64,000 bases of DNA, taken from the NCBI GenBank assembly GCA_977020255.1, contig CDROCS010000636.1, positions 1-64,000 of the forward strand, given 5' to 3'. This DNA comes from Obrimoposthia wandeli (taxonomy: Eukaryota). Positions 10,376 through 61,574 of the stretch are shown piece by piece (the stretch's first letter is position 1; each line of letters opens with the position of its first letter). Position numbers and translations under genes: made by a program. The notes under the pieces were generated by a model. The model saw only the letters and a list, made by a program, of their open reading frames with translations. It did not search any database and was not told the origin of the DNA.

Positions 10376-10907
10376 TTATGTAAACGATGACAGCGATAGG
10401 AATCGCGAGACCGAGCTTCGACGCGAAATAGATTTTGAGGATAGTGATAGTAAATTTGAACGAATGTTGGGAATAATTAAAGATTCACCACATACAAAGA
10501 TGGCGAATTCATCTACGTTGTCGAAACAAGAAAAAGGTCTACACTCGAGAGAAGAGATGAATGATTTAATGAATAAAATATTAGAAGCGTATGAGACACC
10601 AATAGAGAAAACGTGTAACGCACAACCTATGACTGAGCATGTAGAAGCAGCGAGAAATGCTACGAGTATGGAAAATGTAAAAAAGATAATTAGTGAAGCT
10701 AAGGAGACGTTAAATCAACCGTTAGATGAAACGAGTGAAGCTCCAGAAGTTTTGGCCAAATTGCAAACAATTAAAGTGCACCGATTGGAAGAAGTGCGAG
10801 CAGAATTGGTTAAACATAGTCATGATAACTTGGGTTACAAAGAAGTACCACGAGGACTATTGAAAGGTTATGGTCGTTACGTACAGAGATCAAACCAAAA
10901 AGGAACG

Positions 10908-11139
10908 ATGAAAATTTCGCTTCGATTAATTTCCGGACAGATAATACATGAAAAACTTAACGTGTATCAAACAATGAAAACGATTCGGAAAAAAGTTGGC
11001 CGAGAAACTTGAAATTGATGGAATGAATATGTTGTTCCATTATAAAGGGAGATCACTAGATGATGAGGACGTACCAGTCGAGTGTGGATATCCGATAGGA
11101 AATGAATTAGAGGAAAAAATTGATGTCATCACTGTAGGA
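10908..11139 (+). CDS. Ubiquitin-like domain in the polyprotein, split by a +1 frameshift at ~10998
   Basis: Removing one G joins MKISLRLISGQIIHEKLNVYQTMKTIRKKV-AEKLEIDGMNMLFHYKGRSLDD, which aligns without gaps to ubiquitin [52 protein letters not shown]. No C-terminal GG. Confidence 0.7.
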
Positions 11140-11819
11140 CGTCAAGAGTTAGTAGATAATGAAGGATTAACGGAGATATTAAATTCTGCGTTGGAAATGA
11201 TAAAAACGCCTATAGAAATTTTAGACAGTTCAAGCGAAAGCGGAGATAATGATGTAGCTGAAGCTTGGAACAAGACATCCACACCAGAACCACGTAGCTG
11301 AATTACAAGACATGAATTTAGAAAATGAGTTGACAACTCCAGTGGTCGAGGTACCGCCAGAACCAGATATAATTCAAATCAGACAAGATGAAGTCACGGA
11401 TACAGCTAACCAAGTGAGACAAAAACGAAAACCGTAACCCAACTAGTAGGAGAAGACGAAATCTCCGAAATTGTAGATTTAGATTCACCAATTTGGCATG
11501 CTGCATACAAAGATAGACAAGCGGAGCAGATGATGCGACAAAGTGAAGAGATTGGCCATGAAGAAGGACCAAGTCAAGAGATACAGTATAATGGTGAACC
11601 GTATGATCCAGGAGAGAATCAAACTGAGTATCAGTATTTTCGAAGAGGACCTGGAAGACCTAGAAAGGACGGAAGTATATTACGAAATGTTCTAACTGCA
11701 CCACAAACTGATGAAGAGAGACATCTAAGCATTGGACAGTTAGCAGCGTCATTAGAGCAGTATAGTGCAGAGAGGAATGAAGATATCAGAGGTGATATGA
11801 ATTCAGAAGCTCCAAGTAG

Positions 11820-12200
11820 TAAAGATATACTTACGGGAATTCTCAGGCAAGTGAAGCCGAAGTTGTTCAAAATGTACAGAGATGAAACAACCGATATAAC
11901 AGACAATTTGACTAAAGCAGTTAGATCACAGATGTCTGCAGTAAAGAGAATGACCGCGAATCATGTATACCATGCATCGATAGATAGATTTTACGACGGT
12001 GAAGTTTTAGCGAGATTATGTGGAAATCAGACTACAAATAAAAAGTTAATTACAGCAATCACATATCTATGTTTCCAATTGACGGAACGAACGAGCCAAC
12101 CTCACGAAGTCAAACAAGGAATAAATGAAGCGATGTATTTGATCGAGAATGTATTACAGAGACGAATTGACGAAAACGGAGGTTGGGCAAAATTAAGTGA
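11820..12200 (+). CDS. Putative Bcl-2-like domain in the polyprotein
   Basis: YLIENVLQRRIDENGGW resembles BH2 (TYLNDHLEPWIQENGGW in Bcl-xL); KLITAITY sits at BH1-like spacing upstream; the NWGR motif is degenerate; a hydrophobic segment follows. Confidence 0.55.
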
Positions 12201-12312
12201 CTACGCTAAAACCATTGTGGAAATGAACGAAGACGATGACGAACAATGTCATGAGAATCGTCAAAGAGAAAATAAACAATACCGTCCGAAAGAGAGAAAC
12301 AATCAACCAAAT

Positions 12313-14180
12313 ATGTCCACAACAATGATGATGATGTTAGTAATGTTCATGGGAATGCAACAGGAATCAGGACTGATAGCATACGACTGTAGCATACCAA
12401 AGATGGGACAAAAGTATTCACTGCTTGACAGCGAAGACTGTCCAGAATCACAACCGTCAAAATTAGAAGTTAAAGGTGTTGAAAACTACTTTGTGTATCA
12501 GGATGTTGATAAAGTACAAGTAGAAGTGAAAGAATGTTCAATCCATTCAAGTTATCACGAATTCTATTGTGGCCATAGAAGTTTTATGTCGGAAATCACA
12601 CCTACCACACCGTACAAAGCACATAAGGTTTTGCCGAGAGATTGCGAAGACGCATTTCGAACGGGAACAATAGAAGTAGACAAGAATTACAAACCTGATG
12701 TAAAAATTGGAGTAAGACGATACGAAACAGTCACGAGAGTCGGACAACGATGGGCTGATGGATCTTGTGACGGAGGAACAAAAAACGTGCGTGGAACCAA
12801 AGTAACAGAGTTAGTAATGGACGTAACTTACAAAATCGAATTAAAAACATGGACCGCCAATTTTGATAAAAAGACACAACTAATGATGAAGTATCCAGAA
12901 TGTAAAATGACAGATACATCTTGTTTTACAGGCGAATCCACAATTGTGTATCACGTGAATCCGAAACAATGCTCTTTAGTATTTTTGAAAGAGATTAGCT
13001 TTAACAAAATAAAAGGATTCCTGTATAATAAAGATGGAGAAGGATTCCTGTATAATAAAGTTGGAAAAGGATTGCTAAATGAAACAAGACCAATTCCAAT
13101 GACAAAGACACCTACACTGTTAATGGCAACATCAATAGAAGAAGGATTGATATTTATTAAAAAGAGAAACAAAGCGCGATGCGGAATGACTGTTAGTACT
13201 ACAAACTATCCAGCAATAGTTTTGTCCAAAGAAGCAATAGCATTGGCAGAAACCAAGCTAAAACCAAAAAATATGCAGCTACACACGTATTTTAATAATA
13301 AAATTGATTTCTATTATCATAAAGGATTGATGCAAATGGAACAGTTATATCGGATGATGATCGAAAGAGATTGCCAGCTAAACAAAGAGATCGTAAGAAC
13401 AAAGTTAGCATTAGCTATTACGAATCCAGACATGGTAGCACCATTATTACCCTTGGATGAAGGAGTATTTGCTAAAACCATGGGAGAAGTATTGTATACT
13501 TACAAGTGTAATAAAGTAGAGGTACAGTTGAGAAAAACAGATCGATGTACGAGTGAATTGGCAGTAACGTATAATTTAAAAGATCTTTTGTTGAACCAAT
13601 CACGAGAATGATACTTCCAAAAGACACTCCAACTAAAGAAATCAGCTGCTCTAATATAATGGCACCTGAATATCAGATGACGAATGATCTATGGATAACG
13701 TTACCTGATCGAAAGCCAACGCAAAACCCCAGCGATGATAAAAATGACGAATCTTAAAGGTAAAATGAAATTCGAAGCGGTGGAAAATATGGAGAACGCA
13801 GGATTGTACAATGAAAAAGACTTAAAAGCGGCATGGAACGAAATAATGTTTCCAGTAAAAAGAGCCAGAGTACTTACGGAGATGGTACATCGAGCATTAC
13901 CGCCAGGAGCTAGATATGCGAATTTTGATATGTTGTTATCGCCAAGTCATTTCAAGGAAGCAGCACATCAGACACTTAGAAAGTTGTGGGGGAAATTCCT
14001 TGTTTTAGGACAATTATTTTCGGGTATCATAGGTATTTATGTTATAATTAAATTTGTGCAGGTAATTATAGCCCAGGTGTTGTCTACGTATAGTTTATAC
14101 AGGATAACCGGAATCACCTGGCAACTTATAATTGGATGTTTTCCATTTTTAGCAAAATATCTAATGCACCATCATCACGA
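12313..14180 (+). CDS. env: Envelope glycoprotein of chuvirus (Jingchuvirales G)-like type, two frameshifts (~13595, ~13730)
   Basis: Internal signal-like MMMMLVMFMG then LIAYDC; Cys-rich ectodomain (YCG, GSC, CG..TTNYP, LY..MI..DCQL...KLALA..NPD, GEVLY.YKC..VEV..R.T..C..EL.V); C-terminal TM pair FLVLGQLFSGIIGIYVIIK...G.TW..I. Confidence 0.8.
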
Positions 14181-14529
14181 GAACGAGTTGCAAGCCCTCA
14201 AGAAGGAACAACACCAAACGAGAACCATGATGCGAGAACCAAAAAACTATCGAGACGACAACGACGACGATAATGATAGCCCAGGAGTATATGCAAAGAT
14301 ACCAGGAAAACCAAAGATTCCGTTACCAGACAAGGAAGAAGTGGCGTTAAACCTATATCCAATGAAGGAACTAAAGGAAGAGAAGGAAAAGTTCAAGAGA
14401 GGCATCTTAATGATAAGATGGCCTAAAGTGAGCTACAGTGAGATTCCACAAGCAGAGGGAAAAGACAAAAAAGATAATTCCAGAAGAATTCTGAAGTCTA
14501 GGATATCAAATGAGAATCCAAATGCTCCA

Positions 14530-14830
14530 CCCCAAGTAGCAGTAACATTGAACGGAAGAGAATATCTTGCCGAAGTTGATACTGGATCCGCAGTATCAGT
14601 ACTGAGTAAAGAAATCTTGTCATCAAAAGAATTAAGAGAAGTATGTCCTAGAAAATAGACATTTGTTAACGTAAATGGTACAGATGTAGTGTCGGAAGGA
14701 ACACTGAAATGTTCATTGAATATCGATGGAAGAGCATTGCAGTTAAATGCTAGAATATTCACAGATTGCGGTAGTCCAGTCATGATTGGGATGGACGTAA
14801 TAAGAATGTTTGAAGGAATAATTATACTAC
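14530..14830 (+). CDS. Retropepsin-like aspartic protease, copy 1 (in-frame TAG at 14656)
   Basis: LAEVDTGSAVSVL (DTG at 14578), VNG flap-like segment and IGMD; same frame on both sides of the stop. Confidence 0.8.
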
Positions 14831-15059: not shown

Positions 15060-16050
15060 CATGAGATTCGAGAAAAAGAGACGAAATATATTAGAACTGT
15101 ACTATTCAAAAGAAATGGCACGTAAAATGGCAAGATCAGGTTTAGAAATGTTAAACGCGACAAGCAGTTATGGTCATGAGATAGTAGTACGATGCGTATG
15201 GTGTAGAGTAAAGTTTAGAGAGTGGGAAAAGAATGAAAACCCAATGAGACGTCATAAAAGAGATGCACCAAATTGTCCATTTCTTTTGAAACTGAAAACG
15301 TCAAACGTACCAGAAATCCAAAAGGGAAAAGCACCCGATTTCGATTACAGCGACGAGATTCCAAAAGGAAAATCAGCTCTAATAACAGGTAGAGTAATAA
15401 CGAATAGTCGAATTGAAGACATATTCGAAGTTATGCGAGAAGTGAACGAATGTGACGAACAGTATCGAGAAATAACTTTCGAAGATCCAAGACTTAAAAA
15501 ATTGGCAAAAAGGGACTTTTGCTATAAAAAAGGATGGTAAAGACGTAATTAAATGCCACAAGTGTAAAAAAGAACGAATTATCGACAGATATACTCTTGA
15601 GCTACCTAAGAAAATTTTACATCATGAATTTTGCGAATTTTGTACTTTTAAAAACAAAATAAAGCAAAAAGAACAGAAAACCGAATGTATAATCGAATAC
15701 CAAATCACACGGAAAGAGATTTTGGCTCAACAAGACACACCGGTAGTGTCATTCGTGAGAAGGTTATATCCAAAAGAAGCAGAAAGAATCAGAGATTTGG
15801 TAGAATTAAAAATAAAAACTACGCGAAATGGATACGGGACAATTTTTGAATTACTAAAAGATAAAGATGACAGTACAATTGAAACAAAAGAGAAAGAGTA
15901 CATAAATGAACTAGAATACGTACTAGAAGATCCGGAATGCGCAGTTTGCATGGTCAACAAAATAGAAGTTGCCTTTCTACCATGCGGACATGTAAGAACA
16001 TGTCGGAGATGTGCGAATGAAATGGTATCATGTCCGATTTGTCGAAGAAT
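15060..16050 (+). CDS. IAP-like module: BIR1, diverged BIR2 and C3HC4 RING
   Basis: BIR1 CVWC-X16-H-X6-C (15193-15276). BIR2 LAKRDFCY..KDVIKCHKC-X18-H-X6-C (15502-15643), split by a frameshift in an A-run at ~15530 and then in frame with pol. RING CAVC...FLPCGH..TC..CA....CPICR (15938-16042). Confidence 0.85.
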
Positions 16051-16159
16051 AATAGATCGACAAGTGAGAAACATTAGATTTCACTATCCAAACAAAGGAA
16101 GTGGACCGACAGAGTGTAATAATTCGATAAATACAATATACCATATGGGAAATATAAAT

Positions 16160-19100
16160 GGAGCACAGCGACCAGCAGCTATCATTAGAGTAAATAATTT
16201 AAGAGTAAAAGCCTTAATTGATACAGGTGCTGTAGCTTCGATAGTAAGTGAAGACTGTTTGACAGAGGAACAGAAACGAACAATGGCAGAACCAGATGAA
16301 TTCTTGGTATCGGTCAATGGAGACCCTGTAAAAGTGACGGGAATATTACCATGTACATTTATAATTGGACGTAATACGATCACTATACCAGTTAGAATCA
16401 TGAAAGAATGTCCTGAACCTACAATTTTAGGAATGGATGTACTATCACAACTTAAAGGGATAAGTATTGATTTACAAGATCCAAGATTGAAGGATAGCAC
16501 ATCAAACAGACAAATAAACCAAATTGATGTAATTATAGAGAATCCTATAAAAATCGGTAAAAGATCACAATTTCTCATTCAAGGTCACACATTATCGGAA
16601 GATAAAGGACCAGTTGTGTTCGAACCATCACGAGATTTCATAGAGAAATACGAATTACCAGTTGTGAGTACAGTATGCCTGATCGAAAACCACAAAATAC
16701 CAGTTAGACTGATGAATACAACCAACAATGACATTCTATTATACAGAGGAATGAGGTTGGGAAAGATAGCACAAATGGAGAATCCCACCGTGTGTGCTAT
16801 GAAACTCGATAAAGATACGAATGATTACGAAGAGATAGTAATCCAATCAGAAAGACTGACAACTAGAGAAAAGAAACAATTACTTGATCTAATACATAAA
16901 TTTCCGAAAGTAATTGCAAAAAATCCATATGACATAGGAGAAACACCTGTCATAAAACATACAATACCACTGACAGAAGATAAAGTAGTCAGAAGAAGAC
17001 CATATCGAGTACCATTACAGTTACAAGATGAAGTAAAAAGTCAGATCGAAGATATGTCTAAAACAGGAGTAATTAGACCGAGTTTTTCGCCATTCTCAGC
17101 ACCTGTGGTGTTGGTAAAAAAGAAGGATGGGAAAATGAGATTCTGTATAGATTTCAGAGAACTGAACAAGATCACAAGAAAAGATGTGTATCCATTACCT
17201 AGAATCGAAGAGATGCTCGATAAATTGGGTAATTCAGATTATTTTACAACATTAGATTTGCAAAGTGGATACTGGCAAATCGAGATAGAGGAAGAGGATA
17301 AACACAAAACAGCCTTTTCCTGCGGAGATGGATTATACGAATGCGAAAAGATGCCATTCGGACTGACAGGAGCTCCAGCAACATTTCAGCGTTGCATGAA
17401 TTTTGTACTCGCATCGTGTGCAAACACGATGGTTTATATCGATGACATAATAATATTTTCGAAAACGTTCGAAGAACATTTAAAAAATCTTGAAGTTGTA
17501 TTTAAAAGACTGGAAAACGCTAAATTAAAAGTTAAACCTACAAAATGCGAATGGGCTAAAGAGCGAGTAACATTTTTAGGACATATAGTATCGAAAGAAG
17601 GCATTCGACCTGATCCGGCAAAGATCGAGAAAGTAAAAGCGCATTTAGCGCCAAAGACTGTTAAGGAGATACAGAGTTTTTTAGGTCTTGCGAATTATTA
17701 TAGACGATTTGTTGAACATTTTTCAGATATAGCAACACCATTGAGAAAGTTGACGAGAAAAGATGAGAAGTTCATATGGGGAGAAGAAGCACAACAAGCG
17801 TTCGAACATTTAAAAGAAAGACTGATAAAAGCACCAATATTAGCGTTTCTAGATATAAACCGACAATTCATACTCATGACAGATGCAAGTAACTATGCTG
17901 TAGGAGCAGTATTGGGACAAGAGGATGACGAAGGAAGAGAACACGTCATCGCGTATGCGAGTAGAGGATTAAACAGAGCTGAAAGAGGATACTCTGTTAT
18001 CGAAAAGGAATGTCTAGCCATAGTGTATTCATGTAGACAGTACAGACACTATTTGCTAGGACAAAAAGTATTCCTGTATACAGATCACAAACCACTACAG
18101 TTCTTATATAAACATAGAGATGAGATGAGTAGATTAAACAGATGGTTTCTAAAATTGGCCGAATTCGATCTAGAAATCCGTTATAGAACCGGAAAGTCGA
18201 ACGGCGGCGCAGATTGTTTGTCGAGATTGACAAATGTAGACGAGAAAGGAAACATAATTCCAGAAGAAGATGAAACCAATGACCAAAAAGGAGAAGCAAA
18301 TCTACTGACGATTTTGCTAAAGACGGGTAAAATAGACAAAGAGATCATCAAAGAACAGAAAGAAGATGAAGAACTGAGTCTAATCAAAGAATTGTTGGTG
18401 AAAGGAGACCTAAACGATGAAATGACGAAGAAATACTCGATAAAAGAAGGAATCTTGTATATTGTCAATAATGTCGGAAAGATAGTAGTAGTAATTCCGA
18501 AGTCATTGAAAACAGCAGTGATGATCCAGTATCACGATGGAACACTAGGAGGACATCTGTCAGGGCGAAAGACAATAGCCAGAATCAAAGAGAAGTACCA
18601 TTGGGATGGTATGGAAGACGACATAAAACAATGGTGTAAACAATGTAAAGTATGTTTAACCAGAAAAGACACCGGAACTCGTACTAAAGTTCCACTGAAA
18701 CCAATGCCAGTTCCTTTGGCACCAATGGAATTCACAGCGATGGATATATTGGGACCATTGAGAGAATCAAGTAAAGGAAACAAGTACGTCATAGTATTTA
18801 CGGACTTACATGACGAGATGGGTAGAAGCATATCCCATGCAGAACCAGAAAGCTGAAACAATAGCGCAGATCTTAGTGGAAGAGATAATATTTCGATACG
18901 GAGTGCCTAGAAAGTTGTTAACGGATCAAGGTAAGAACTTCACTGGAGAAGTAATAAAAGCAGTATCGAAGATATTCGGAATCATGAAGTTACAAACTTC
19001 ACCATATCACCCACAAACAGATGGTCTAGTAGAAAGGTTTAATAAAACTTTATGTATGATGGTACAATCCTATTGCTCAGACAAGCAAGAGGATTGGGAT

Positions 19101-19560
19101 AAATATTTACCTTCATGTTTATATGCTTACAGGAATTCAGTTCGAGAGGCGACGGGTCACACACCATTCTATCTGATGTATCTCAGACAGAACAATATGC
19201 CGATGGATCTGGAGTGGACCAAGCCAACATCTCAGTATCTAGAAACTGAACAATACATTGTCGTCATGAAGGAAAGATTACAAGATGCTTGGACCAAAGC
19301 CGGATTGAAGTTGAAATTCAATCAAGAAGGTTACAAGGAACAATACGACAAAAAAGCAAAACCACATGAATTTAGAGTCGGAGATCAAGTGATGATATTT
19401 TATCCAGTCATCGAACCAGGTCTATTGTTTAAACTTCATAGACCATACAAAGGACCATACAAGGTGATCCAGACAACCTCAACAAATTTGAAAGTAATCA
19501 ACGAGGAGAATCGGAACAAGGAACCGATGATTGTACATGCAAATCGATGTAAATTAGTAC
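16160..19560 (+). CDS. pol: Pol: protease 2, reverse transcriptase, RNase H, integrase with GPY/F motif (frameshift ~18810)
   Basis: LIDTGA (16220); RFCIDFRELN, LDLQSGYWQI, YIDD (17435); TDASNYAVGAVL, EKECLAIV, TDHKPL; HHCC zinc finger; MDILGP, TDQGKNF, YHPQTDGLVERFN; YKGPYKV. Confidence 0.97.
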
Positions 19561-19745
19561 CAAATAAAGATAATGCATCACGATATGAGTTAAGATCACA
19601 GAAATTGAAGCCAAATACCAATACCATTAAACTTACACGAATGGTAAGTGATCGGAACTACATAAACATGATGACGAGTGGTAGCGAGGAAAAACCAGCG
19701 AGAATTGGTATGCTCAGAATGAAGCACCAAGAGGAAAAGGAAGTA

Positions 19746-20712
19746 ATCCGACACATCGCACCACAAGAGATATTAGAAGAAGATGAAGAGATAATAGTTG
19801 TTTTCGAAAAAACACAACCAACAGATGTGGCTAAAGAAGTCATTGTGAAAGATGCACTGACAAACGAATTTCTGTGCGAACTTAGAGTGTCATACTACGA
19901 CGGAAATACATTAATCGCAGCACTATATCAAAACTCCAATGTGTTTACGACTGAGAAAGTGATAATCGAAATCACATTGACACCAAACATAGTTGCATGG
20001 CAGAACTATGACAGTACTGAAGCAGGACTAGCCAGTCAGGAAGAAAAGGAACCGGCCGGTGGTCACATACTGCATGGTACACCAAAAAGACTCAAACAAG
20101 AATACCACGATGTAATAATGGTATTACGTAATTCACATGGGAAAAGAGATATCATGAGAGTTCATTTAATCGACGCAGACACCGAAAAGATAATTTGTCA
20201 GATGGACACCAAATACTTTGACGGAAAGACAATTGTATGTTGTATACCAGAATCTCACCGGTTAGACACAGATCAAACGGAAGTATCTGTAAGGTTGAGC
20301 GTAATAGAAGGATTTCATTCGCCAACCCAACCGGAAGTGACCAACAATAAAATCATCAAAGCAACGGCAGAGTTACGCATTGACAGCGGATACCGGAAGT
20401 GGGAAGCTAAAAATAAAAAACCACAAAGAATCAATATGATCCGAGAACAAGTGACCAACTCAATCCAGCCAAAATATCATGCTGAAATAGTATCATCCGC
20501 GCCAAGTGTGATTACATCGATAAACGACGAAATTATAATTTTACTAAAAAATCGATGGCCGTCATCAACCGAGATACGAGTAAATTTAATTAATTATGCG
20601 AAAACACCGATATCTAAGCTGAATGTTACCTATTTCGATGGATTATCCATCATGGGTAAATTGGAAACAATTGTCATGTGCTATGGAGCACAGTTCCAAG
20701 TTGAGATACTTA
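19746..20712 (+). CDS. Three tandem ~80-aa beta-rich repeats, possibly TIG/IPT (Ig-like) domains, after integrase
   Basis: Repeats share I...P......(D/E)(E/V)I(I/M)(V/I)...N......V...........Y(Y/F)DG.(T/S)(L/I); Y(Y/F)DG at 19893, 20214 and 20631. Confidence 0.5.
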
Positions 20713-20912
20713 AAGATAGCGTAATACCGTATCCGATTCACAAATACGAAGGGGAAATCAATCCAATTATTCTAACCCCTTCATTAATTTCAGTTCAGAC
20801 AGACATACCAGAATACCCTTCGAGCGAGTCTAGTCAAGACAGCGAACCGGAAAGTAACGATACAGAATAAACAGAATCCGAAGATAACATAATAGAGCGA
20901 TTCGGAAGAACC

Positions 20913-21659
20913 ATGGAGGTTGAATTCGCTAAAGAGAACAGAAAAAGACAAAACATAGAATTCGTGAAACAGAATATACAAGAAAGACGAATTAAATCTG
21001 CAGAAGAAACCGAGTCGGAAGAAGACTCAACAAAGGAACAGACATCAGAGACAAAGATGAATATCTCTCCAGCAATACGAATGCTGAGAGGAAAGAAACT
21101 GGCGAAACTATCCAACATCGACGAACAGATAGAGAAGAGATTAGAAAGACTAAAACTCGAAGAGTCAGAATTATTGCCACCAATGAGCGAGATCATTCCA
21201 GATAAGTTATACCTCGGAAATGTGGAAGATGCAACAGATGAAAAGAAACTGTTGGAACAAGGGATAACATACGTGATCAACGTTACAATGAATCACAAAT
21301 CACAATATCAGACAATCAGAGCTATGACATTAAGAGTAAAAGACTCAATGGACGCTAATCTTCTCGAATGGTTCGTAGAAACAAACGAAATACTTCACAG
21401 AGAACTCCGAAACCAAGGAAAAGTGTTGGTACATTGTCAGAAAGGAATTTCTCGATCAGCAACTCTAGTATTAGCATATCTAATAAAGACTAGACGAATG
21501 CAGGTACTAGAAGCGCTGAAATACCTACAGGAGAGAAGAAGTATTGCAAACCCAAATCTTAATTTTTTGGGACAGTTGGCAAATTACCAACTTCTGTTGC
21601 AAGAACAAAGACGGATAGACGACATTCCTGAGGATCCAAAGGAAAAGAATTTCCTCTAA
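20913..21659 (+). CDS. Dual-specificity protein phosphatase, catalytic motif intact
   Basis: MSEIIPDKLYLG, GITYVINVT, V.D, VLVHCQKGISRSATLVLAYL (HC at 21432), NPNLNFLGQL. Confidence 0.92.
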   Translation: MEVEFAKENRKRQNIEFVKQNIQERRIKSAEETESEEDSTKEQTSETKMNISPAIRMLRGKKLAKLSNIDEQIEKRLERLKLEESELLPPMSEIIPDKLYLGNVEDATDEKKLLEQGITYVINVTMNHKSQYQTIRAMTLRVKDSMDANLLEWFVETNEILHRELRNQGKVLVHCQKGISRSATLVLAYLIKTRRMQVLEALKYLQERRSIANPNLNFLGQLANYQLLLQEQRRIDDIPEDPKEKNFL

Positions 21660-21668
21660 GCATTATCG

Positions 21669-22931
21669 TTGACCGGGTTATTCTTAGCCGGAGTCGACAA
21701 AATTACACAGATAATGCCAAAAGTATTTTTATGTCATCCAGGAGATATAGATACTGCTGGATTAAAGTTCCACAGTATCAACCGAGTAATCAACATTGTT
21801 GAAGTCGGAAACGAAATAATCAGTCTGTGTCAAAATACTGAAGATGACACCACTCGATACATACATGCTTCCAATCGAGAGATAAACGATGCACAACAAC
21901 ATCTGACGAAATTGACTCAAACCATCCAAGCCGAAGTCACAGAAGGAAACGGCGTTCTGATATATCAGAAAAAAGGTACAATGTTAGCGCCTACCATAGG
22001 TGTATCCTTGTTGGTAGAGTACCATGGTCACACGCCAGAAGAAGCGATGGTCTACATCAAACAGAATAGACCAGATACGGAATTCAAACCGTTACTCGTT
22101 CGAGAAATAGAGAAGTACGCCGAAAAGAGGAAGCAACAACGAGAAACAAATGAAGCTACAACAACAGTGCCCAGCTTTCAATACCAAAGATTGCTAGCGA
22201 TAGGCTTGTTAAGTTGTCTAATGCCGATAACGGGAGCACAAGAGATAGGCTCCAACCACGGAAATAGTTCCTGGTTCAACGAAATCCACAACTACACCAT
22301 ACAGTACCATACGCCGGCACTGATGATGCTATTAGTGTTGTTAGGATTAATTGATGTGTGGATCATCCGAAAATGTCTCCGATCTATGAGAACCGACAGT
22401 AAAAGATTTCAGTTTGTAAAGATGAAAAGACCAAATGGACCGACGAACAAAGTGCTTGTGTATCTAGACGAAAGGATCGAGGATAACATAGTAAATGAAG
22501 CGATATTTTATCCACAAAACAGAATACTGAATCAATTCCGAATAGATTACGAAGCTGACCGACAGCGCACACTTGACCGAATATCAACAACATTCGCCGG
22601 ATGCAAGCGAAGAAAACGAATTGTAAAGGAAATAAAAAAAGATGCTGATACAAAAGGACCGACGTATATATTCGACGGCGATGTCATCAAAACACGTGAG
22701 TATGGAAGTAAGAGAGTGATAATTGAAACGATGGAAGGACATAAAACATGCTTGTCCGCTAAAAATGGATTCGGAAAGTTGATGATACAAGGTAAACAGG
22801 TACAGTTGATTATCGGGAAAAATGGAATCGAGGAGATGTCAAAACAACGACAGACAACAAAACGATCCAATCAGAAACAGATATCTCTCAAACGAATGAT
22901 AATTAAAACCCTTTGCAAAAGGTCAGTCTAG
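21669..22931 (+). CDS. ORF with a catalytically dead DSP-like domain, a small signal+TM segment and an unknown basic domain
   Basis: ITQIMPKVFL..INRVINIV..GVLIYQKKGTMLAPTI..L..Y.G.T.EEAM.YIKQNRP parallels the upstream DSP but lacks the HCxxGxxR Cys and Arg. Hydrophobic stretches LLAIGLLSCLMPITGA and LMMLLVLLGLIDVWII follow. Confidence 0.6.
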   Translation: MTGLFLAGVDKITQIMPKVFLCHPGDIDTAGLKFHSINRVINIVEVGNEIISLCQNTEDDTTRYIHASNREINDAQQHLTKLTQTIQAEVTEGNGVLIYQKKGTMLAPTIGVSLLVEYHGHTPEEAMVYIKQNRPDTEFKPLLVREIEKYAEKRKQQRETNEATTTVPSFQYQRLLAIGLLSCLMPITGAQEIGSNHGNSSWFNEIHNYTIQYHTPALMMLLVLLGLIDVWIIRKCLRSMRTDSKRFQFVKMKRPNGPTNKVLVYLDERIEDNIVNEAIFYPQNRILNQFRIDYEADRQRTLDRISTTFAGCKRRKRIVKEIKKDADTKGPTYIFDGDVIKTREYGSKRVIIETMEGHKTCLSAKNGFGKLMIQGKQVQLIIGKNGIEEMSKQRQTTKRSNQKQISLKRMIIKTLCKRSV

Positions 22932-22955
22932 GCCCTGTGCACCGTTGCACAAGGA

Positions 22956-23621
22956 TTGATCTACGGAGTAGTAATTGGATTAGTACTACAAGCCATGCCA
23001 ACCAGTAAAGCTGAAATGATGACATTATACGAGTATAATCTACATTTGAGAAATCTAGACAACACCCTCGAAATAATCAAGACGTCCCACAGTAAAGCCG
23101 TAAGGATCATGTGTGTAAAAGGATGTCCAGGACGAATGTGTATAGTTCCAGCGACCGAAATGAAAACACTTAATGGACATTATGGAGTTAGTATTGTCAC
23201 ATGTGAAGACTACACATTTGGACAAACTAAAATAGTACTTCTCAGTGACATGTCCAACCAAAGTGCACACAAATTTAAAATATTAACCATCAAGAGTAAA
23301 TGAATACCAGCAGTACGTTATGGTATTCTAGAATTGGTTAATCCAATACTCGCACTGATCATTGGATTCATAATATTAATATTACTCATCTTGTTTTGTT
23401 GTACAAAGATAGAGTTGAGATCAAAAAAGAAACGTCATGATCTTGCAAGACGAACAGGTCAAATGAATTTACAAAAATTCAACACAAGTATACCAAGACC
23501 ACCATTCCTAGATGAACCAGCACCGGAGTACCAGCCAACGATATATGAACATATCGAGGAAAGACCGTACTATATGAGTAATTTGAGTTGTTTCATTGAA
23601 ATTCCTGAGTTTAGGAATTGA
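22956..23621 (+). CDS. Putative type-I membrane protein (signal, Cys-containing ectodomain, TM, Tyr-motif tail); in-frame TGA at 23301
   Basis: LIYGVVIGLVLQAMPTSKA signal-like; ILALIIGFIILILLILFCC TM followed by RSKKKR; tail contains TIYEHI. Confidence 0.5.
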
Positions 23622-23636
23622 ACGATCATAGGAATC

Positions 23637-24854
23637 ATGCTGATCATACAAATTACCACTACCAAGGCTAGTTATGAGATCATGATCAGTAAATGGAGAC
23701 AAGATGTAATACGGGCATTATACATAGAAATCCCTCTATTAAAAACAAATCACGTAGTAGACATTCATCTACAGACGTCAGCAACCGACAATATCGATCA
23801 GAAATTGTATGTCATCCGACAGGTCAGAATAAAGATCGACCAAAGTACACCTTACTACAAACTGATATTATTCAATCACGAAAGAGTGTTATACCTACGG
23901 ATAACGATATCAAAAAGGAAGCGGATTATCCAAAGTATCCGCACAAAGTCATTAATATTGCCTAGAGATGAGCGCATCTGGAAAATTGTCGACAGGATTA
24001 TGATCACAGGTAGACGACGTAAAGCCGTATGGAATTCCGTTAGAATATTTTTCAGATTACTAGAAACTGACAAAGTAACAGTATCGTGTCCCAATCCAGA
24101 TGGCGGAATCAGATTCGAAATCCAAAACCAAATGTTAGTACCACATTTTGATACAGAATGTCTGTGTAATCGAATTCCCAGTAACACTACAGAGACCTCG
24201 ACCATAATCATGGTAATAACAGGTGAAATATTCTACATAACTCTAAGATACCAGAACCGTCGATTTCGTAGGTCCGGTATAAGTATCAAACCCAGGAAAA
24301 TCATTCCCAAAAAACCAATCCTAGTCAAAAAGAAGGCAAAGGTAAACGAAAGTAAACACCATTCCAAAAAGCCGAAAGTGATCAGAACAAAGACAGAAGC
24401 GAAAGAAAAAGAGCTAAAATCCAGAAACCAAAGTACAGTTATTAAGAGGACAAGAGTGAGGGGAACGATCCCACTAGATCCCAAAAATTATTTCCAATCC
24501 AAAATAATAATACCTGTTCTACCAGAAACAAAACACCCAAATCCACGAATTTTTAGAAAATCGGACATAATACATGGAAACCGATCAAAACCCATGGAAA
24601 TGTCATTCGAACCGACAAACAACAAAATGAAGTATGAGTATCAATCATCAGATAGCAGAGTAACAGCGGTCAATGCTCTAATTGGAATGGCCGTAGTGTC
24701 AACAGCAGTGGTTCTATTGACAGTCGTGTGCGTGAAAGGCAGTCAAGTATGCCCAAGAATACGGCGAAAATGCGAAGGATTGCGATGCTGTGACATACCC
24801 ACCATGGAGGAAGTGGAATTGCGACCCTTACCTCCGCCTCCCATCAAGATATGA
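23637..24854 (+). CDS. Putative type-I membrane protein, unknown function
   Basis: 405-aa ORF with an N-terminal hydrophobic segment, Lys-rich region, TM ALIGMAVVSTAVVLLTVVCV and a Cys/polyproline tail. Confidence 0.55.
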   Translation: MLIIQITTTKASYEIMISKWRQDVIRALYIEIPLLKTNHVVDIHLQTSATDNIDQKLYVIRQVRIKIDQSTPYYKLILFNHERVLYLRITISKRKRIIQSIRTKSLILPRDERIWKIVDRIMITGRRRKAVWNSVRIFFRLLETDKVTVSCPNPDGGIRFEIQNQMLVPHFDTECLCNRIPSNTTETSTIIMVITGEIFYITLRYQNRRFRRSGISIKPRKIIPKKPILVKKKAKVNESKHHSKKPKVIRTKTEAKEKELKSRNQSTVIKRTRVRGTIPLDPKNYFQSKIIIPVLPETKHPNPRIFRKSDIIHGNRSKPMEMSFEPTNNKMKYEYQSSDSRVTAVNALIGMAVVSTAVVLLTVVCVKGSQVCPRIRRKCEGLRCCDIPTMEEVELRPLPPPPIKI

Positions 24855-24977: not shown

Positions 24978-25277
24978 ATGTCCGAAGAATGCCCAATATG
25001 TTTGGAAGATCTCACCGAACGAAGAACAAGACCCGAAACCTGCAACCATTTACACCACGAGGAATGTTTATCAACATGGATCAGAACTTATGGACAGTTC
25101 GGACATCCAACATACCCTTGTTGCCCTGTATGCAGAAGACAATTCGCAAGATTCATCATGTTAGAACCCAACCAAGAGGATGTATATGTACAGGTGGTAT
25201 TCTGTTGGAAGAATTTCGGAGAGTGTTGGTGTTACTACTGTTTGTCAGAACGACAAAATCCGACCACTTTTGTGTAA
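24978..25277 (+). CDS. RING-H2 zinc-finger protein 1
   Basis: CPIC...CNHLHHEEC..W...CPVCR plus a C-terminal CWK....CWCYYC cluster. Confidence 0.85.
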   Translation: MSEECPICLEDLTERRTRPETCNHLHHEECLSTWIRTYGQFGHPTYPCCPVCRRQFARFIMLEPNQEDVYVQVVFCWKNFGECWCYYCLSERQNPTTFV

Positions 25278-25337
25278 ACATCACACAATCACCAGTCCTC
25301 AATCGAGCCCAAATTCAACATCAACCCTCTCACAGTA

Positions 25338-25643
25338 ATGTCTGGAGAATGTTCCATCTGCTACGAGAGCATCGTGGACCTCTACACCAAGCCCAACAAC
25401 TGCGACCACCTTTTCCACATCGAATGCCTCGAGACGTGGATTCCCATCGCCAACAGCAACAATCCCCTCGACTTCCCAACCTGCCCGATGTGCAGAGCGA
25501 CCTTCTCAGTGCACTACGTGTACAACCAGGACAGCCTCCAAGCAGTGGTACCCATAGTACACTGCTGGAAAACTATCTGCGATTGCTGGTGCTCGTTCTG
25601 CGTGGAGGAGCGACGCACAGGCCAGCCCAACTCCCAGCAATAA
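25338..25643 (+). CDS. RING-H2 zinc-finger protein 2 (paralog of 1)
   Basis: CSIC...CDHLFHIEC..W...CPMCR plus the same CWK....CWCSFC cluster. Confidence 0.87.
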   Translation: MSGECSICYESIVDLYTKPNNCDHLFHIECLETWIPIANSNNPLDFPTCPMCRATFSVHYVYNQDSLQAVVPIVHCWKTICDCWCSFCVEERRTGQPNSQQ

Positions 25644-25984
25644 TCGAAGGTAACTTTCTGACTTGAACGTGACATCATGAACTACCCTGTGTATCGCATA
25701 CCGCGATAAATTAGCTACCATAATTGTAATCATAATTGTATAATCTTGTGAAACTGTAAAATGACCATTACCATTTTTATGTATGTTGTTTAACTGAAAT
25801 TGTAATTATTATACTGAAATTCTAAAAGACAATTTTTTATGCCTAGTGTGAATGTGTAAACATGCCTAAAATCGGAACAAAACTCGGTAGGATTAAAAAA
25901 CTAAGGGTTCGTTTTGAAACTAGAATTTTAAACTTTATAAATTAACGACGAAAACAGTCGAAAAGGAATCATTATTTTGTGCAG

Positions 25985-26482
25985 ATGAAGTGTTCAGTCT
26001 GCCTGGAGAAAATTTGGACGGCATCGGCATCCCCTGTCGGCTGCCGTCACAAATTCCACGAGTCGTGCCTCTATACTTGGGCCCGACTTCGACCCGAAGG
26101 CCACGTCACATGTCCGTTGTGCCGTGCTCCCTTCGCGGAGTGGACACTACAATGTCGCGGACGCCACAAGGGCACTCATTCGCTCACCAGCTGTATTGGT
26201 GGCGAACATTACCAATGCCCCAACTGCATCGCGCGCCGTCGCGACGCGAAACTCGCCCTCCGCGAAAAATGGCGATCAACCCGTGACTGCCGCTCATGGC
26301 AACGTGGTCGCCAAATATGGATCCAGAACCGCGGGGTCCACGGGCGGTACACGACCCTCTTCCACCCCAATCAGCACCTCAGCATGCCCCAGCAGATGGC
26401 CCTGTTCGAAGGCAGGACTCCATCATATCCAGACCTACCACTGGAGCAGGTCTTGCTGTTCTTAAAAGACAGAAACAATTGA
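25985..26482 (+). CDS. RING-H2 zinc-finger protein 3
   Basis: CSVC...CRHKFHESC..W...CPLCR plus downstream C....H.QCPNC; ATG at 25985. Confidence 0.85.
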   Translation: MKCSVCLEKIWTASASPVGCRHKFHESCLYTWARLRPEGHVTCPLCRAPFAEWTLQCRGRHKGTHSLTSCIGGEHYQCPNCIARRRDAKLALREKWRSTRDCRSWQRGRQIWIQNRGVHGRYTTLFHPNQHLSMPQQMALFEGRTPSYPDLPLEQVLLFLKDRNN

Positions 26483-26746: not shown

Positions 26747-29034
26747 TGTTAGATTTAGGAATTGAGAAATTATTAAAAAATTAAATAATTTATACTAAAA
26801 TAAAATCCTTGAAAGCAAGGTTGAAAATTAAATATTTAAAATTAAGTTAAAATATTAGAGAATAAAATCAGGGGTAAATATTAATAGGACCACGAAGGTC
26901 GTGTGTAATGCGTTATATATAAGGTTAAGTTAATTAAGTAAAAGTGCAAAAAAGAAATCAGCAAACAAACTAAGAAAAAGGAAAGTCAAAAAATTAATCA
27001 AATCAAAAAGAAATCCAGGAAAAGAAGAAATTATTGTAAGTTGCGATTATTGATTAAATCGTTTACTTTCTTTTTTCAGCTGCCAATATTGAGTGACAGG
27101 AAACGTCACAGCCAAAATTTCAATTTCTATATTTTCAGCTGTCTAGGATAAGTGGCTTTGAGTGACAGGAAACGTCACAGCCAAAATTTCAATTTCTATA
27201 TTTTCAGCTGTCCAGGATAAGTGGCTACAGCGCTCTAGCCTAAGTGGGTAAGAAATTACTATAAGAACAATTTTCTTTAATCAAATAATTGCAGAAAAAC
27301 AAATAATTGAAGTCGAATATAATTGAAAGGTTGGAAACAAATAATTGAAGTCGAATATAATTGAAAGGTTGGAAACAAATAATTGAAGTCGAATATAATT
27401 GAAAGGTTGGAAACAAATAATTGAAGTCGAATATAATTGAAAGGTTGGAAACAAATAATTGAAGTCGAATATAATTGAAAGGTTGGAAACAAATAATTGA
27501 AGTCGAATATAATTGAAAGGTTGGAAACAAATAATTGAAGTCGAATATAATTGAAAGGTTGGAAACAAATAATTGAAGTCGAATATAATTGAAAGGTTGG
27601 AGACAAATTGAAGTCGAGACAAATTGACAGACAGACCAACATATCTCCGACCAAATCATTAACCGAGAGTCCAAACAGAGCCAACCCTCTGACAGCCCAC
27701 GGATCCAGATCTCGGGAAAAAACTCTAGGATTGGATAGGTGAGACGACTCATATAAACACAAATCATTGTCCGCAGTTGACAATTAGGTTTTATACAAAT
27801 CATTGTCCGCAGTTGACAATTAGGTTTCACGCAAATCATTGTCCACAGTTGACAATTAGGTTTCACGCAAATCATTGTCCACAGTTGACAATTAGGTTTC
27901 ACGCAAATCATTGTCCGCAGTTGACAATTAGGTTTCCATATAAATTTTCATACAAATCATTGTCCGCAGTTGACAATTAGGTTTCACGCAAATCATTGTC
28001 CACAGTTGACAATTAGGTTTCCATATAAATTTTCATACAAATCATTGTCCGCAGTTGACAATTAGGTTTCACGCAAATCATTGTCCGCAGTTGACAATTA
28101 GGTTTCCATATAAATTTTCATACAAATCATTGTCCGCAGTTGACAATTAGGTTTCACGCAAATCATTGTCCGCAGTTGACAATTAGGTTTCACGCAAATC
28201 ATTGTCCACAGTTGACAATTAGGTTTCCATATAAATTTTCATACAAATCATTGTCCGCAGTTGACAATTAGGTTTCCCACAAATCATTGTCCACAGTTGA
28301 CAATTAGGTTCCATATAAATTTTCATACAAATCATTGTCCACAGTTGACAATTAGGTTCCATACAAATCATTGTCCACAGTTGACAATTAGGCTTTTATA
28401 CGAATCATTGTCCACAGTTGACAATTCTCGTCTGAATTCATAACAATAGAAAGTTACTCAAATTAAAGAAAGCTTTACCCAACACGATCTAAGTTTAAGT
28501 TGAAAGAAAGTTTTAAGAGAGTTGTGTTATAAATTAACCAACCTAGAAAGAAGATTTGCATTCGCACCTTTATTGTCATAAGAATAAAGGTTTAACCTCA
28601 AAAGTTCAAGCCGATAGCAAAGTTAAATTGTTGAGAAATCTGTAACGCGAGCTTATTCTCGAGTCAGAAGAATAACTCTAAAATCTCGATCACCCCGAAC
28701 GTAAAATCGATACGTGGTTCATCCCCACTTGTTGTAGAGACTTACAGAAGTCTTAGGAATTTTTACTATACTTTTTAGAAAATACGTACATAAACGTATT
28801 GTTGTGTTCAGTTTAGTGTGCTACCAATAAACGATTTCCTACATTAGAAAACGTTGTTTTAAACCTTCAGACCAACAGACGTCTAACCAAACACCTTCAG
28901 ATAAGAAATAGAGATAGGCAACCATAACACTAAGTAGGCCACGACCAACTTTAAGACCTGCTTCTATTCGAACTCACGTTGGGGCCCTCCGCACACAAGA
29001 GGATCTATACAAGTCTCGTATAGAAACCCCAACA
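26747..29034 (+). repeat. 3' LTR (2288 bp)
   Basis: TGTTAGATTTAG...AAACCCCAACA; holds 8 near-identical 38-bp units (27301-27604) and ~17 units of a 36/48-bp array (27760-28430). Confidence 0.93.
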
Positions 29035-29223
29035 AACGTATTGTTCTGGTCGTGTTCGAAATTTTAATTTGGATACATCATCTAAGCAAATTCCTTTATA
29101 ATTAATATTTGTTAACATTGTAAGTAAAATAATTAAATTATTGTATTTATATATATATTTTTTTTTATTCAGTATACAAATCAACCAATATCTCAAGTCC
29201 AATCAAATCAAACATATCATCAG

Positions 29224-32200
29224 ATGAGTATATGTAAAACTTATTCAAATTTTTGTCATTCGGATACACATTTTAATCCTCAAGAATGTCATGATATAAT
29301 GAAAAAATATTATGGTTATTCATACAAAAGGATAAATTATTTCATATGTCCACAATGTTTAAGCACTGAAAATGTTGATTACAACTTATTTTATAGTCGA
29401 CATGTTAGTCATTTAAAAGAATATGAAAATGATAGTAAGAAAAAATTATTTAAAGTACCGGCTTTAAGCAAAAGAACTGATATAATTAATGTACCATCAA
29501 ACATAGTAATTTCAGCTCCTACTCCGTCACGAAAACGTAAAATAAATGACAATATACATACTAAAACATCGTTAGAAAATAGTTATTCAATGATATCCAT
29601 GAAAGTAGATCATCTCAATCTTGTAAGTCTTAAGGTTCCAGTTTCATTATTAAACGAATTAGAAAGAATAGTGCAATTAATGGGAAAAGCAAAGATACAA
29701 TACATCATTAGAATGAGGTTTAAAAAGAATGATGGAGAAACTAAAGAATGGTATGCTTCGCATCGAGCAATGATTTTTTCACATGCTATAATTTCAGAAA
29801 TGGAAGATACAATGGAAAATAAAGTTGAAGAATATTCAGAAAAGGGTAGTGGTTGGAAATTGATGAATATACTTGAATATACATTTATTGCTACTAAATA
29901 TAGTCAAATTTGTGCATTGTCAGGTCATTCATATATTAAATCACCAAATTCTCTTACAAAATCTAAAGCAGTCGTCAATATTCAAAACTCTGATAATCTT
30001 TGCTTTATTTATGCAATATTGTCAATATTTAAATATAATGAAATAGAATTACATAGAAATAGACCAAGCCAATATGAAAGATTTTTAAATGATTTTGTAT
30101 ATAATTCCGAAGACATGCCTATGAAAATATCAAATATATCAAAATTTGAAATGCAAAATCCTGGTATAATAATAAATGTATTCATATTCAACGAGATAAG
30201 TGAAATAGAATCAAAAACTGATGTTATCAAGAATCCTTATATTGATATTGCATACAAATCAAAAATAAAGGAAGGAACTATAGTTAACTTATTGTTACTA
30301 GAATCCAAGGAACGATTTCATTATATAGGAATAACTTGTCTTAACCGGCTATTAAATATTCGAACTGGAACGACTAGAATTAGCAGAAAATGGTGTGAAA
30401 AGTGTTTACATGGTTTCAAAACCGATTTGTCATTAGAAAAGCATAAAGTTTTATGTGACTATAATCAAGAAAGCACTACAATGTATACTATGCCTAAGAA
30501 TAAGTACGTTAAATTCAACGATTGGTCAAAAACTATATCACCGAAATATGTCGTTTACGCTGATTTTGAATCTGTATTAGTACCAGATGAGAGTTATCAT
30601 CAAAAGCATATGCCTGTCGCATCTGGTATGTTATTTATGAGTACAGATGAAATTGAAACCCAGTATCAATATAATGTTGGTGATGACTGCATAGTTAAAT
30701 TTCTTCAGTCAATAGAGAACTTGGCTAAAGAAAAAGTTTTGCCATGGTATTTAGATGCTCTTAAAAACGTAATGATACCCTTAACAAATGCAGAGATTCA
30801 TACATTTAGCAATGCCGATGAATGTTATTTATGTCGCGAATCATCTGAAAAATATGTTAAAGATCATGATCACTTTACTGGCAAGTATCTAGGTCCTGCA
30901 TGCAATGAATGTAATTTATCAAGAAAACTTCGTCCAACTTTACCTATTGTGTTTCATAATCTCAGAGGTTATGATTTACATCATATTTTAAAACATGCAT
31001 TGAATAAATTTACTGACTGGGATATAAATATTATACCACAATCAACGGAAAAGTTTCAAGCCATGATTGTAAGATTAGGTCAAATAACTCTGAGATTTAT
31101 AGATTCTTTGCAATTTTTACAATCATCTTTGGAAAATTTAGCCGGTAAATTACCAACTATTCCATTAACAAGATCAGTTTTTCCATCTAAACTTATTGAT
31201 GGCAAAGGAATATTCCCATATGATTTTGCTACATCATTAAATGTCCTCCAGAATAAGTTAAGTTTACCAGTAAAATGGAATGATAAAATCACAGACACTG
31301 AATATCAAAAAGCACAAGATGTTTGGAAAATAACCAATTGTAGAAATATGTTGGATTATATGTTAGTTTACTTAAAGACTGACGTATATTTATTAGCTGA
31401 CGTATTTCAAACATTCAGAAGAAAAAGCTCTCAGTGAAGATGGTTTAGAACCACTTAACTTTTTTAGCATTCCTGGGTTGAGTTGGGCAAGTGCTCTAAA
31501 AATGTTAAAACATAAGGTTGAACTGATGCAGGATCCTGAAATGTACAACATGATTTCTTCGGGTATACGAGGAGGAATGACATTTGTCAATAAGCATCAT
31601 GTAGTCGCTGATGAAGAAACAAGTCTTTTATATATAGATGTTAATAATTTATATGGATGGGCTCTTGATCAACCTTTACCAAAAGGAGATTTTGAATGGA
31701 TTCTTGATGATATAAAATTAAACGAAATATTGCATGAAATGAAAAATGTGAACATGGAACATATTGAATATGGTTATTTTATGGAAGTAGACTTGGTAAT
31801 ACCAGAAAACCTTCATGACTTTTTAGATGATCTTCCTATAGCTCCAGAAAAGAAATGTCCACCTGGTAAAAAGTTGAAAAACTTTTAATGACGCATTCGC
31901 CAAAAAGTCATTATGTTATTCATTGGAGACTATTGCAGATGTATGTTAGTTTAGGAGCAGTGGTAACAATTATTCATCGAGCAGTAAAATTCTCTCAGGC
32001 TAAGATATTCGCAGAATATATAGAATATAATTCAGAAATGAGATCACAAGCAACGAATAAATGTGACAAAGATTTTTATAAACTTAAAAATGTTAGTTTG
32101 TATGGAAAGACCGTTGAAAATGTTAAGAAACGATTGAATCTTCACATCTGCACTAGTTCTACAAAATTAATTACATATACTAGCAAACCTATGTTTCAAC

Positions 32201-32862
32201 GAACAATTGAAATTCATGATAATTTAATAGCTGTTTTATTAAGAAAAGACTTTATTTGTCTCGATCGACCAAATTATATAGGTCAAGCTGTACTAGACCT
32301 TAGCAAATTACGAATGTATACTCTTCAGTATCATGATTTGCAAATATATCGTAATTTGTTCAATTGTTCAATTAATATAGTTGCCGGTGATACCGACTCA
32401 TTCTTTTTGGAATGTAAAAACGTTAATTTAAGAAAACAGTTGTTACCAAAAATGATTGCAGATGGATTATTAGATACGTCAAATTATAATGTGAATGATC
32501 CATTATATTCTAATAAATTTAATAGTAAAATAGGTTTATTTAAAGATGAATCGGAAGGACGAATGTATAAAGAATGGATTTTCTTACTTTGTAAATGTTA
32601 TTCACTTAAGTTTGAAGATGACTTTGAAAATAATAAAGCAAAAGGAGTAAATCTTAAGGGTTCAACGGTTGTACATCAAACATATTTAGACGTGTATGAA
32701 AACGGTATTGCATATACTATACCTCAAAAGAAGTTTGGAACAATAAATCATCAACTATACACGATCATAATACAAAAGACTGCTCTCAGCTCATCAGATG
32801 ACAAACGCTATTGGATCGAGAAAAATAGAAGCCGCGCTTATGGACATTATGAAATTACATAA
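29224..32862 (+). CDS. polB: Protein-primed family-B DNA polymerase (Polinton/Maverick/adintovirus type) with EndoVII-like insertion; two frameshifts (~31430, ~31885)
   Basis: Exo motifs YADFES, FHNLRGYD, YLKTD; IDS and KGIFPY; GIRGG; polymerase motifs YIDVNNLYG, KL.NVSLYGK, GDTDS, GLFKDE, KAKGV, DDKR; CYLC...DHDHFTGKYLGPACNECN at 30823-30915. Confidence 0.9.
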
Positions 32863-33130: not shown

Positions 33131-33139
33131 TTATGGACT

Positions 33140-33505
33140 AGATCACAAAAAAGAAGGGTGGAGACTAAGCCACTTGACCCTTTGAATTAATGGTTAGCCA
33201 AAAAGAAGGGTGGAGACTAGATCACAAAAAGAAGGGTGGAGACTAGACCACAAAAAGAAGGGTGGAGACTAGATCACAAAAAGAAGGGTGGAGACTAAGC
33301 CACTTGACCCTTTCATAGTGATATATCACAAAAAGAAGGGTGGAGACTAGACCACAAAAAGAAGGGTGGAGACTAAGCCACTTGACCCTTTCATAGTGAT
33401 ATATCACAAAAAGAAGGGTGGAGACTAAGCCACTTGACCCTTTGAATTATGGACGACCATAGTAGTTAGCCAAAAGAAGGGTGGAGACTAGATCACTTGA
33501 CCCCC
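33140..33505 (+). repeat. Iteron-like array: 9 copies of GAAGGGTGGAGACTA mostly spaced 26 or 52 bp apart
   Basis: Copies start at 33153, 33205, 33231, 33257, 33283, 33335, 33361, 33413 and 33476. Confidence 0.9.
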
Positions 33506-33526
33506 TCACCCTCTCCCCTCCCTCCT

Positions 33527-61541: not shown

Positions 61542-61574
61542 CTGAATAATGATGATAATTATGTATCACAATTG

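Follow-up and report, generated by a model that had tools for sequence, protein, structure and literature searches.

An active-looking DSP phosphatase and a dead DSP-fold neighbour carried by a giant Burro-like Ty3/gypsy element

Burro and GYPSM1 are giant gypsy elements of planarians (PMC6431247). As that review outlines them, they exceed 20 kb, have a CCHC-type gag and a mononegavirus-type env between gag and pol, follow a long polyprotein design with accessory ORFs, and carry BIR and RING domains as part of an apoptosis- and ubiquitin-related cargo. The review's outline makes no mention of a phosphatase. Captured phosphatases are instead a known feature of DNA viruses, in which baculovirus PTP, poxvirus VH1 and the DSPs of giant viruses sit beside IAP-type genes.

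Two kinds of non-catalytic phosphatase domain are also pertinent. The A domain of Cdc14 has the DSP fold. This domain contributes to substrate specificity (PMC7038166), Cdc14 has a docking pocket (PMC13637742), and the D2 domain of receptor PTPs is a non-catalytic partner that aids substrate recognition (PMC8269279). The second kind is represented by STYX, MK-STYX and STYXL2. These have a DSP fold without the catalytic Cys, but STYX-domain proteins keep the Gly, Ile, Ser and Arg of the loop (PMC8269279).

Here we describe an active-looking and a dead DSP domain, DSP1 and DSP2, side by side in a 64,000-nt stretch of Obrimoposthia wandeli DNA (the window). Its source is eukaryotic, AT-rich and probably an invertebrate. 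The pair is cargo of a Ty3/gypsy LTR element of about 24 kb (5064-29034) with a Burro-like design. All features of the element are on the forward strand. Its likeness to Burro/GYPSM1, judged from the published description, covers the traits listed above, including a probable long polyprotein design. There are differences. The window element has the DSP pair, no ankyrin or MATH domain was found in it, its LTRs measure 2.1-2.3 kb, and the copy is broken. The Burro-type single ORF of about 5000 aa is in pieces here, although the pieces are collinear with single-ORF relatives. A search for the dUTPase-like domain that Burro has between protease and RT gave no Pfam match at E values up to 5; the region itself is present and aligns with relatives. 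The element type is already known; its DSP cargo seems to be new. Among the titles and abstract openings searched, which did not include the original Burro paper, none described a DSP carried by an LTR retroelement or an active-plus-dead tandem in one. An earlier note on this DNA had drawn on viral DSPs and proposed a damping of signalling; a virus-like, host-modulating context is borne out by the presence of BIR, RING and env in the same element. The retroelement and the stop codon between the two domains were both absent from that note.

The element is bounded by a 5' LTR (5064-7170, TGTT...AACA, with tandem arrays inside) and a 3' LTR (26747-29034), both with TG...CA ends. A candidate PBS-like TGG motif lies 8 nt past the 5' LTR (7179-7196). 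No target-site duplication was found and the element's flanks differ, which suggests recombination, decay or mis-assembly of the insertion. The LTR arrays differ in regularity: in the 5' LTR they are ragged, with a match of 78-94%, and in much of the 3' LTR they are near-perfect (up to 99%). When the two LTRs are compared, indels are about as frequent as substitutions. The two halves of the element may come from different copies, or may have been assembled with unequal quality.

Inside the LTRs the first domain is gag (8580-10375; Retrotrans_gag with a CCHC knuckle), which is interrupted by stops and frame switches. Burro elements place ubiquitin-like and Bcl-2-like domains ahead of env, and two weak candidates for these follow. 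One is a possible ubiquitin-like domain (10881-11130; UBX, E 0.063) that a frame switch divides in two. It matches three relatives by blastp (E 0.002-0.003), whereas phmmer with a relative's ubiquitin-like domain as query gave no match. The other is a possible Bcl-2-like domain (11800-12240) for which Pfam Bcl-2 is the top match (E 0.048); PDB and ESM Atlas searches lent it no support. Next comes env, a Monjiviricetes-type fusion glycoprotein between gag and pol (12376-14257; PF24664, E 1e-52 and 5.6e-28). Its frame is broken at about 13611-13699, and its identity to relatives' env is 35-47%. A first aspartic protease (14536-14830) with a stop inside at 14656 precedes a BIR domain and an IAP-type RING (15109-16061; BIR E 3.9e-10, zf-C3HC4_3 E 1.1e-12). 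Then come a second protease (16170-16460), RT, RNase H and integrase (16170-19600 in all), in the Ty3/gypsy order according to Pfam and with a frame switch at about 18795-18856. Many relatives likewise have two or three proteases, one of them past the integrase.

The region after the integrase opens with a 422-codon tail (19602-20870) that ends at TAA 20868. It contains three repeats of about 75 aa, which matched no family. The repeats (19780-20750) share a [YF][FY]DG motif, and their pairwise scores were reached by 0, 2 and 1 of 2000 shuffles. DSP1 and DSP2 follow, and after them three abutting segments in the same frame with signal- or TM-like stretches and a weak poxvirus 2L-N match (22932-24854). 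Part of this (22932-23621) reads as a signal-like stretch and a 102-aa domain that gives the 2L-N match (E 0.003-0.006). Past a stop there are a TM helix, a di-Cys, a basic run and a Pro/Tyr-rich tail with a weak match to orthoreovirus p10 (E 0.006). The series closes with three small RING-H2 ORFs, each with its own ATG (24978-26482; zf-RING_2, E 3e-9, 8e-9 and 2e-8). The GC3 of RING ORFs 2 and 3 (25338-26482), 0.78 and 0.65, exceeds the roughly 0.3-0.4 of the rest of the element, which suggests that they were captured more recently. PHROGs matched none of seven segments. Neither tRNA genes nor a further internal copy turned up in the 64-kb window.

What are the element's closest relatives? 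A pol search among proteins of 1972-5000 aa gave 548 matches, of which the best 120 were examined. Twelve of these have the same env and pol in one ORF and one more is a partial member (together P0058, P0059, P0062, P0064, P0072, P0074, P0082, P0096, P0098, P0099, P0111, P0116 and P0122). The RT-RNase H of the window is 56-62% identical to these 13 and at most 48% identical to 20 others compared, and it forms a clade with all 13 (SH-aLRT 99; 33 rows). The relatives resemble the window element in their env, extra proteases and variable cargo after the integrase. Unlike it, they have no DSPc or BIR within their polyprotein ORFs, and their tails have no similarity to its tail. A DSP profile matched none of the 120 listed polyproteins. 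The cargo of P0072, P0096 and P0116 includes ubiquitin-like and ankyrin repeats and an Ig domain. Two members of this eukaryotic clade, L001 (1-4655) and P0111, come from metagenome-assembled genomes of bacteria, which host DNA has most likely contaminated. The membership of the clade seems broader than the Burro set published so far.

The first of the two phosphatase domains appears to be a working enzyme. DSP1 is a 248-aa ORF (20913-21659) with a charged N-terminal arm and an intact DSP domain, and its first ATG has a strong Kozak context (ACCATGG). The match to Pfam DSPc (E 1.4e-34) exceeds the curated cut-off. The P-loop HCQKGISRS (21432-21458) fits HCx5R with Cys and Arg intact, and the general-acid Asp (codon at 21342) is 31 aa ahead of the Cys in an invariant column, as defined from 46 named cellular DSPs. 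The active DSP of the earlier note is thus upheld at the level of sequence: DSP1 is a captured atypical DSP with a complete Asp/Cys/Arg triad, and is predicted to be catalytic. Among the best 60 of 77 PDB matches, the top scores belong to the catalytic domains of MKPs (DUSP10 at 91 bits, DUSP4 and DUSP1 at 84), and neither poxvirus VH1 nor baculovirus PTP is present. Viral DSPs differ in this respect as well as in residing in DNA viruses, because DSP1 is nearer to cellular MKP domains within those 60 matches. A tree with a single MKP reference gave no clear grouping of DSP1 with the MKPs.

MAP kinase phosphatases are defined by an N-terminal rhodanese/KIM domain. Pfam finds no such domain in the DSP1 arm, which has one loose docking-like string, noted without a chance control. 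The KIM is described for MAP kinase phosphatases in PMC8269279. DSP1 gave 347 matches among 624 candidates; identity is at most 42% in the 120 listed, and no element-borne copy was recognised among these. Could the pair simply be a host cellular gene? This is ruled out, as the pair lies between the LTRs, is in frame with the integrase and has the A-rich third codon position of the element.

The second domain is of a different kind. DSP2 (21696-22148) has the loop YQKKGTMLA at 21963-21989, in the same frame as the loop of DSP1. Both domains and both loops described in the earlier note are therefore real and share a frame. What does not stand is an uninterrupted tandem, since an in-frame TAA (21657-21659) in the linker makes DSP1 and DSP2 two ORFs as assembled. 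Whether the second domain has a DSP fold at all had been set beforehand as a test, and several results say that it does. Its match to Pfam DSPc (E 1.4e-6, 28.6 bits) is under the cut-off of 33.5. Against a profile built from the 46 named cellular DSPs, without any sequence from the window, it scores 30.1 bits, compared with 7.6 for the top shuffle (1000 shuffles, 979 scored). The pattern of the core is kept: of 43 core columns 33 are hydrophobic, whereas outside the core the figure is 20 of 85 (p 1e-8). Given a DSP alignment, AlphaFold2 reaches a pLDDT of 79.7, but this model is not independent of the alignment because the single-sequence fold, with no alignment, failed (pLDDT 43). All listed Foldseek matches to the model in the PDB are DSP- or PTP-type chains (TM about 0.6-0.7), and the ESM Atlas is in agreement at 0.94. 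The best PDB sequence matches are DUSP28-type chains with weak E-values, and identity to viral DSPs is merely 10-20%.

The active site of DSP2 is another matter. Where the aligned columns have Asp, His, Cys, Ser, Arg and Ser, DSP2 has N, Y, Q, M, L and A, respectively. The catalytic Cys is thus absent, with Gln in its column, and the loop reads G-T-M-L against G-I-S-R, so that only Gly of the four is kept. As modelled, DSP2 is a DSP fold without the phosphate-binding residues or the general acid. The ORF continues through a signal-like segment (22191-22241) and a TM-like segment (22317-22367) to TAG 22929. Relatives of this ORF number zero among 4589 candidates of 742-2115 aa. A search of 1.84 billion representatives gave five matches at E <=0.001 (best 2e-5), all inside the DSP domain; P0003, which is among them, contains a pair of DSPc domains and no retroelement domain. 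A second copy of DSP1 or DSP2 was found nowhere in the protein and genome-contig searches. Scanning the genome contigs with integrase alone yielded nothing, and scanning with the pol alignment yielded two short loci, both without a DSP.

Is DSP2 a duplicate of DSP1? The earlier note's word paralogous finds little backing if taken this way. The two are 21% identical over 136 columns, DSP1 comes only 16th among the 46 targets reported when DSP2 is the query, and the tree neither unites nor separates them (p-AU 0.134). One weak hint in favour of duplication is a Lys directly before the loop Gly, present in both domains and in none of the 46 reference DSPs.

A further question is whether DSP2 was ever under selection. 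It might be a functionless relic of a duplication or of a second capture. The DSP2 branch is very long (8.8 changes per column), the element copy is decayed and no conserved relatives were found, all of which would suit a relic. The retained hydrophobic core would not. Furthermore, the six active-site codons are at least 10 of 18 bases away from canonical, far above the 1-2% of recent decay, and the frame is nevertheless open; selection probably went on acting on the fold once catalysis had gone. In a simulation that presupposes an origin from DSP1, a stretch of 150 codons remained free of stops in 1 of 2000 runs of neutral drift to <=25% identity. We consider a relic very improbable, the least probable of the roles weighed here. 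Selection probably maintained the fold of DSP2 during the active life of the element.

How, then, were the two domains made? Over 2020 codons (18795-24854) one frame is interrupted by 6 stops, compared with 196 and 108 in the other frames. Each segment after the integrase opens straight after the previous stop, and the chance of five junctions sharing one frame is 0.004 if frames are independent. This arrangement suggests that the DSP pair was probably once in one polyprotein that has since decayed. Coding-like sequence also lies 5' of the first ATG in several places: the first strand of DSP2, and hydrophobic stretches after the stops at 22929 and 23301. An acidic run flanks the stop at 20868 on both sides, and a further stop sits within protease 1, besides those after the integrase. 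All 13 single-ORF relatives extend in frame for 301-1337 aa past the integrase, 12 of them with hydrophobic segments. L001 has an in-frame signal-ectodomain-TM extension after the integrase; one stop falls in this extension and another in its pol. The LTRs differ by 2.6-4.6% in substitutions, from which roughly 4-6 nonsense changes would be expected in the frame, and five are seen; the lack of a target-site duplication makes this LTR clock shaky. A decayed polyprotein is the reading we favour, with reasonable though not firm confidence, and the stops at 20868 and 21657 most likely represent decay. The module is then probably not expressed as such today.

What if the stops are genuine? DSP1 would be an accessory phosphatase in its own right, 248 aa long with its start at 20913, which we regard as rather unlikely. 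DSP2 would form the cytosolic head of a membrane protein of its own, 405 aa long with its start at 21714, a part to which we give the same modest weight. The common frame would be the relic of an older polyprotein that was later subdivided, which is no better placed. In support, the stops lie in linkers and DSP1 starts with ACCATGG. The first stop comes 422 codons past the integrase, a distance similar to the 301-709 at which 12 of the 13 relatives' polyproteins end. There are five frame switches upstream and none after 18856, leaving 6 kb without one. The three RING ORFs are clearly separate, and in the review's outline Burro accessory domains are either ORFs or parts of the polyprotein (PMC6431247). 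All five stops are at or near domain borders, and two of the five precede a hydrophobic stretch by no more than 20 codons (p 0.03, in a post hoc test). About 1100 codons of pol have no stop where 2-3 would be expected, and a 733-codon piece of env has none against about 2. Observations that do not fit are the DSP2 profile match, which begins 6 codons before the first ATG (21714), the signal- or TM-like stretches that precede the first ATG of two segments further downstream, and the stop count, which matches decay. The decayed polyprotein thus stays our preferred reading.

Two other explanations of the stops are ruled out. A reassigned genetic code would not produce all three stop types alongside a pol free of stops over about 1100 codons. 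Classical programmed read-through is ruled out by the three stop types and the lack of a context in common, as judged against leaky stop contexts.

What might the pair do? Our explanation, which as a whole we offer tentatively and at slightly short of even confidence, is that it is an element-borne host-control pair. DSP1 and DSP2 would be made as a single chain within the in-frame extension after the integrase and then freed by proteolysis. The signal- and TM-like segments after DSP2 suggest a membrane tether, and together DSP2 and the signal-like segment could hold DSP1 on the cytosolic face of the membrane. DSP2 may in addition supply a docking surface, by analogy with the Cdc14 A domain or receptor-PTP D2. 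A separate docking module would make sense, since DSP1 is MKP-like but lacks a rhodanese/KIM domain. DSP1 might then dephosphorylate host stress kinases, namely JNK/p38-type MAPKs; judging from its sequence, MAPK damping is plausible. The outcome would be blunted apoptosis in the cell that makes the particles, alongside the BIR-RING, the possible Bcl-2-like domain and the RING ligases. Like the window pair, Cdc14 A/B and receptor-PTP D1/D2 combine an active phosphatase with a non-catalytic partner, but this is an analogy only. The window order is active then dead, unlike Cdc14, and the fold is that of a DSP rather than of a classical PTP, unlike D2. Pfam names a DSPn family, which DSP2 does not match.

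The earlier note had a different role in mind: DSP2 as a STYX-type trap for phospho-substrates, acting jointly with DSP1 to dampen signalling through MAPK or JAK/STAT. A DSP fold without the Cys and a virus-like context would accommodate this, and STYX competes for ERK binding (PMC8269279). However, DSP2 has lost the general acid together with two loop residues, Ser and Arg, which are retained in all three STYX proteins (PMC8269279). With Gly alone remaining of G-I-S-R, DSP2 is unlikely to trap phospho-substrates and is not classed here as STYX type. Its position beside an active DSP in a mobile element also sets it apart from STYX, MK-STYX and STYXL2. DSP1 also shows no affinity to VH1 among the best 60 of 77 PDB matches, and nothing in the analysis points to JAK/STAT. 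We think this trap highly improbable; by analogy, a non-catalytic docking or anchor partner fits DSP2 better.

Another alternative is that the domains serve the particle, either as structural or assembly partners or as a phosphatase that acts on proteins or RNA of the element itself. There is precedent in baculoviruses. The PTP of BmNPV is a structural protein of the virion whose activity is not needed (PMC3320614), and that of AcMNPV dephosphorylates RNA and protein in vitro (PMC3471939). The membrane segments behind DSP2 might be taken the same way. Conversely, the host effect of AcMNPV requires an active enzyme (PMC3471939), and the top scores of DSP1 are MKP domains (best 60 of 77 PDB matches). 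Moreover, none of the 13 relatives has a DSP in its polyprotein, from which it follows that a DSP is not a core part of the particle. A particle role seems improbable, if a little less so than the trap, and the host-control pair is still our preferred explanation.

If DSP1 does act on host kinases, Burro-like elements would manipulate phospho-signalling besides apoptosis and ubiquitin pathways. That would strengthen the published idea that they are present or past infectious proviruses. DSP2 would add a rare pseudophosphatase, one in which the entire phosphate pocket is lost and the fold kept. As the DSP1 ORF is intact, the idea is directly testable. A bolder scenario, which we consider unlikely, is that an env-bearing retroelement lineage built a DNA-virus-like toolkit (IAP, Bcl-2-like, RING, membrane proteins and the DSP tandem) as one giant frame. 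The tandem would then be an independently evolved Cdc14- or D2-like phosphatase, and perhaps the five border stops were retained to tune expression of the cargo.

The element has neighbours in the window. Pieces of a family B DNA polymerase begin about 100 nt past the 3' LTR. They belong to a forward-strand region (29137-32862) in which Pfam recognises a polymerase of the protein-primed type and an endonuclease VII domain in three frame pieces, and which we take to be probably a Polinton-like element. Further along there are a 64-nt inverted repeat with a 5-nt spacer (33527-33659) and tandem arrays at 33136-33512 and 61555-62301.
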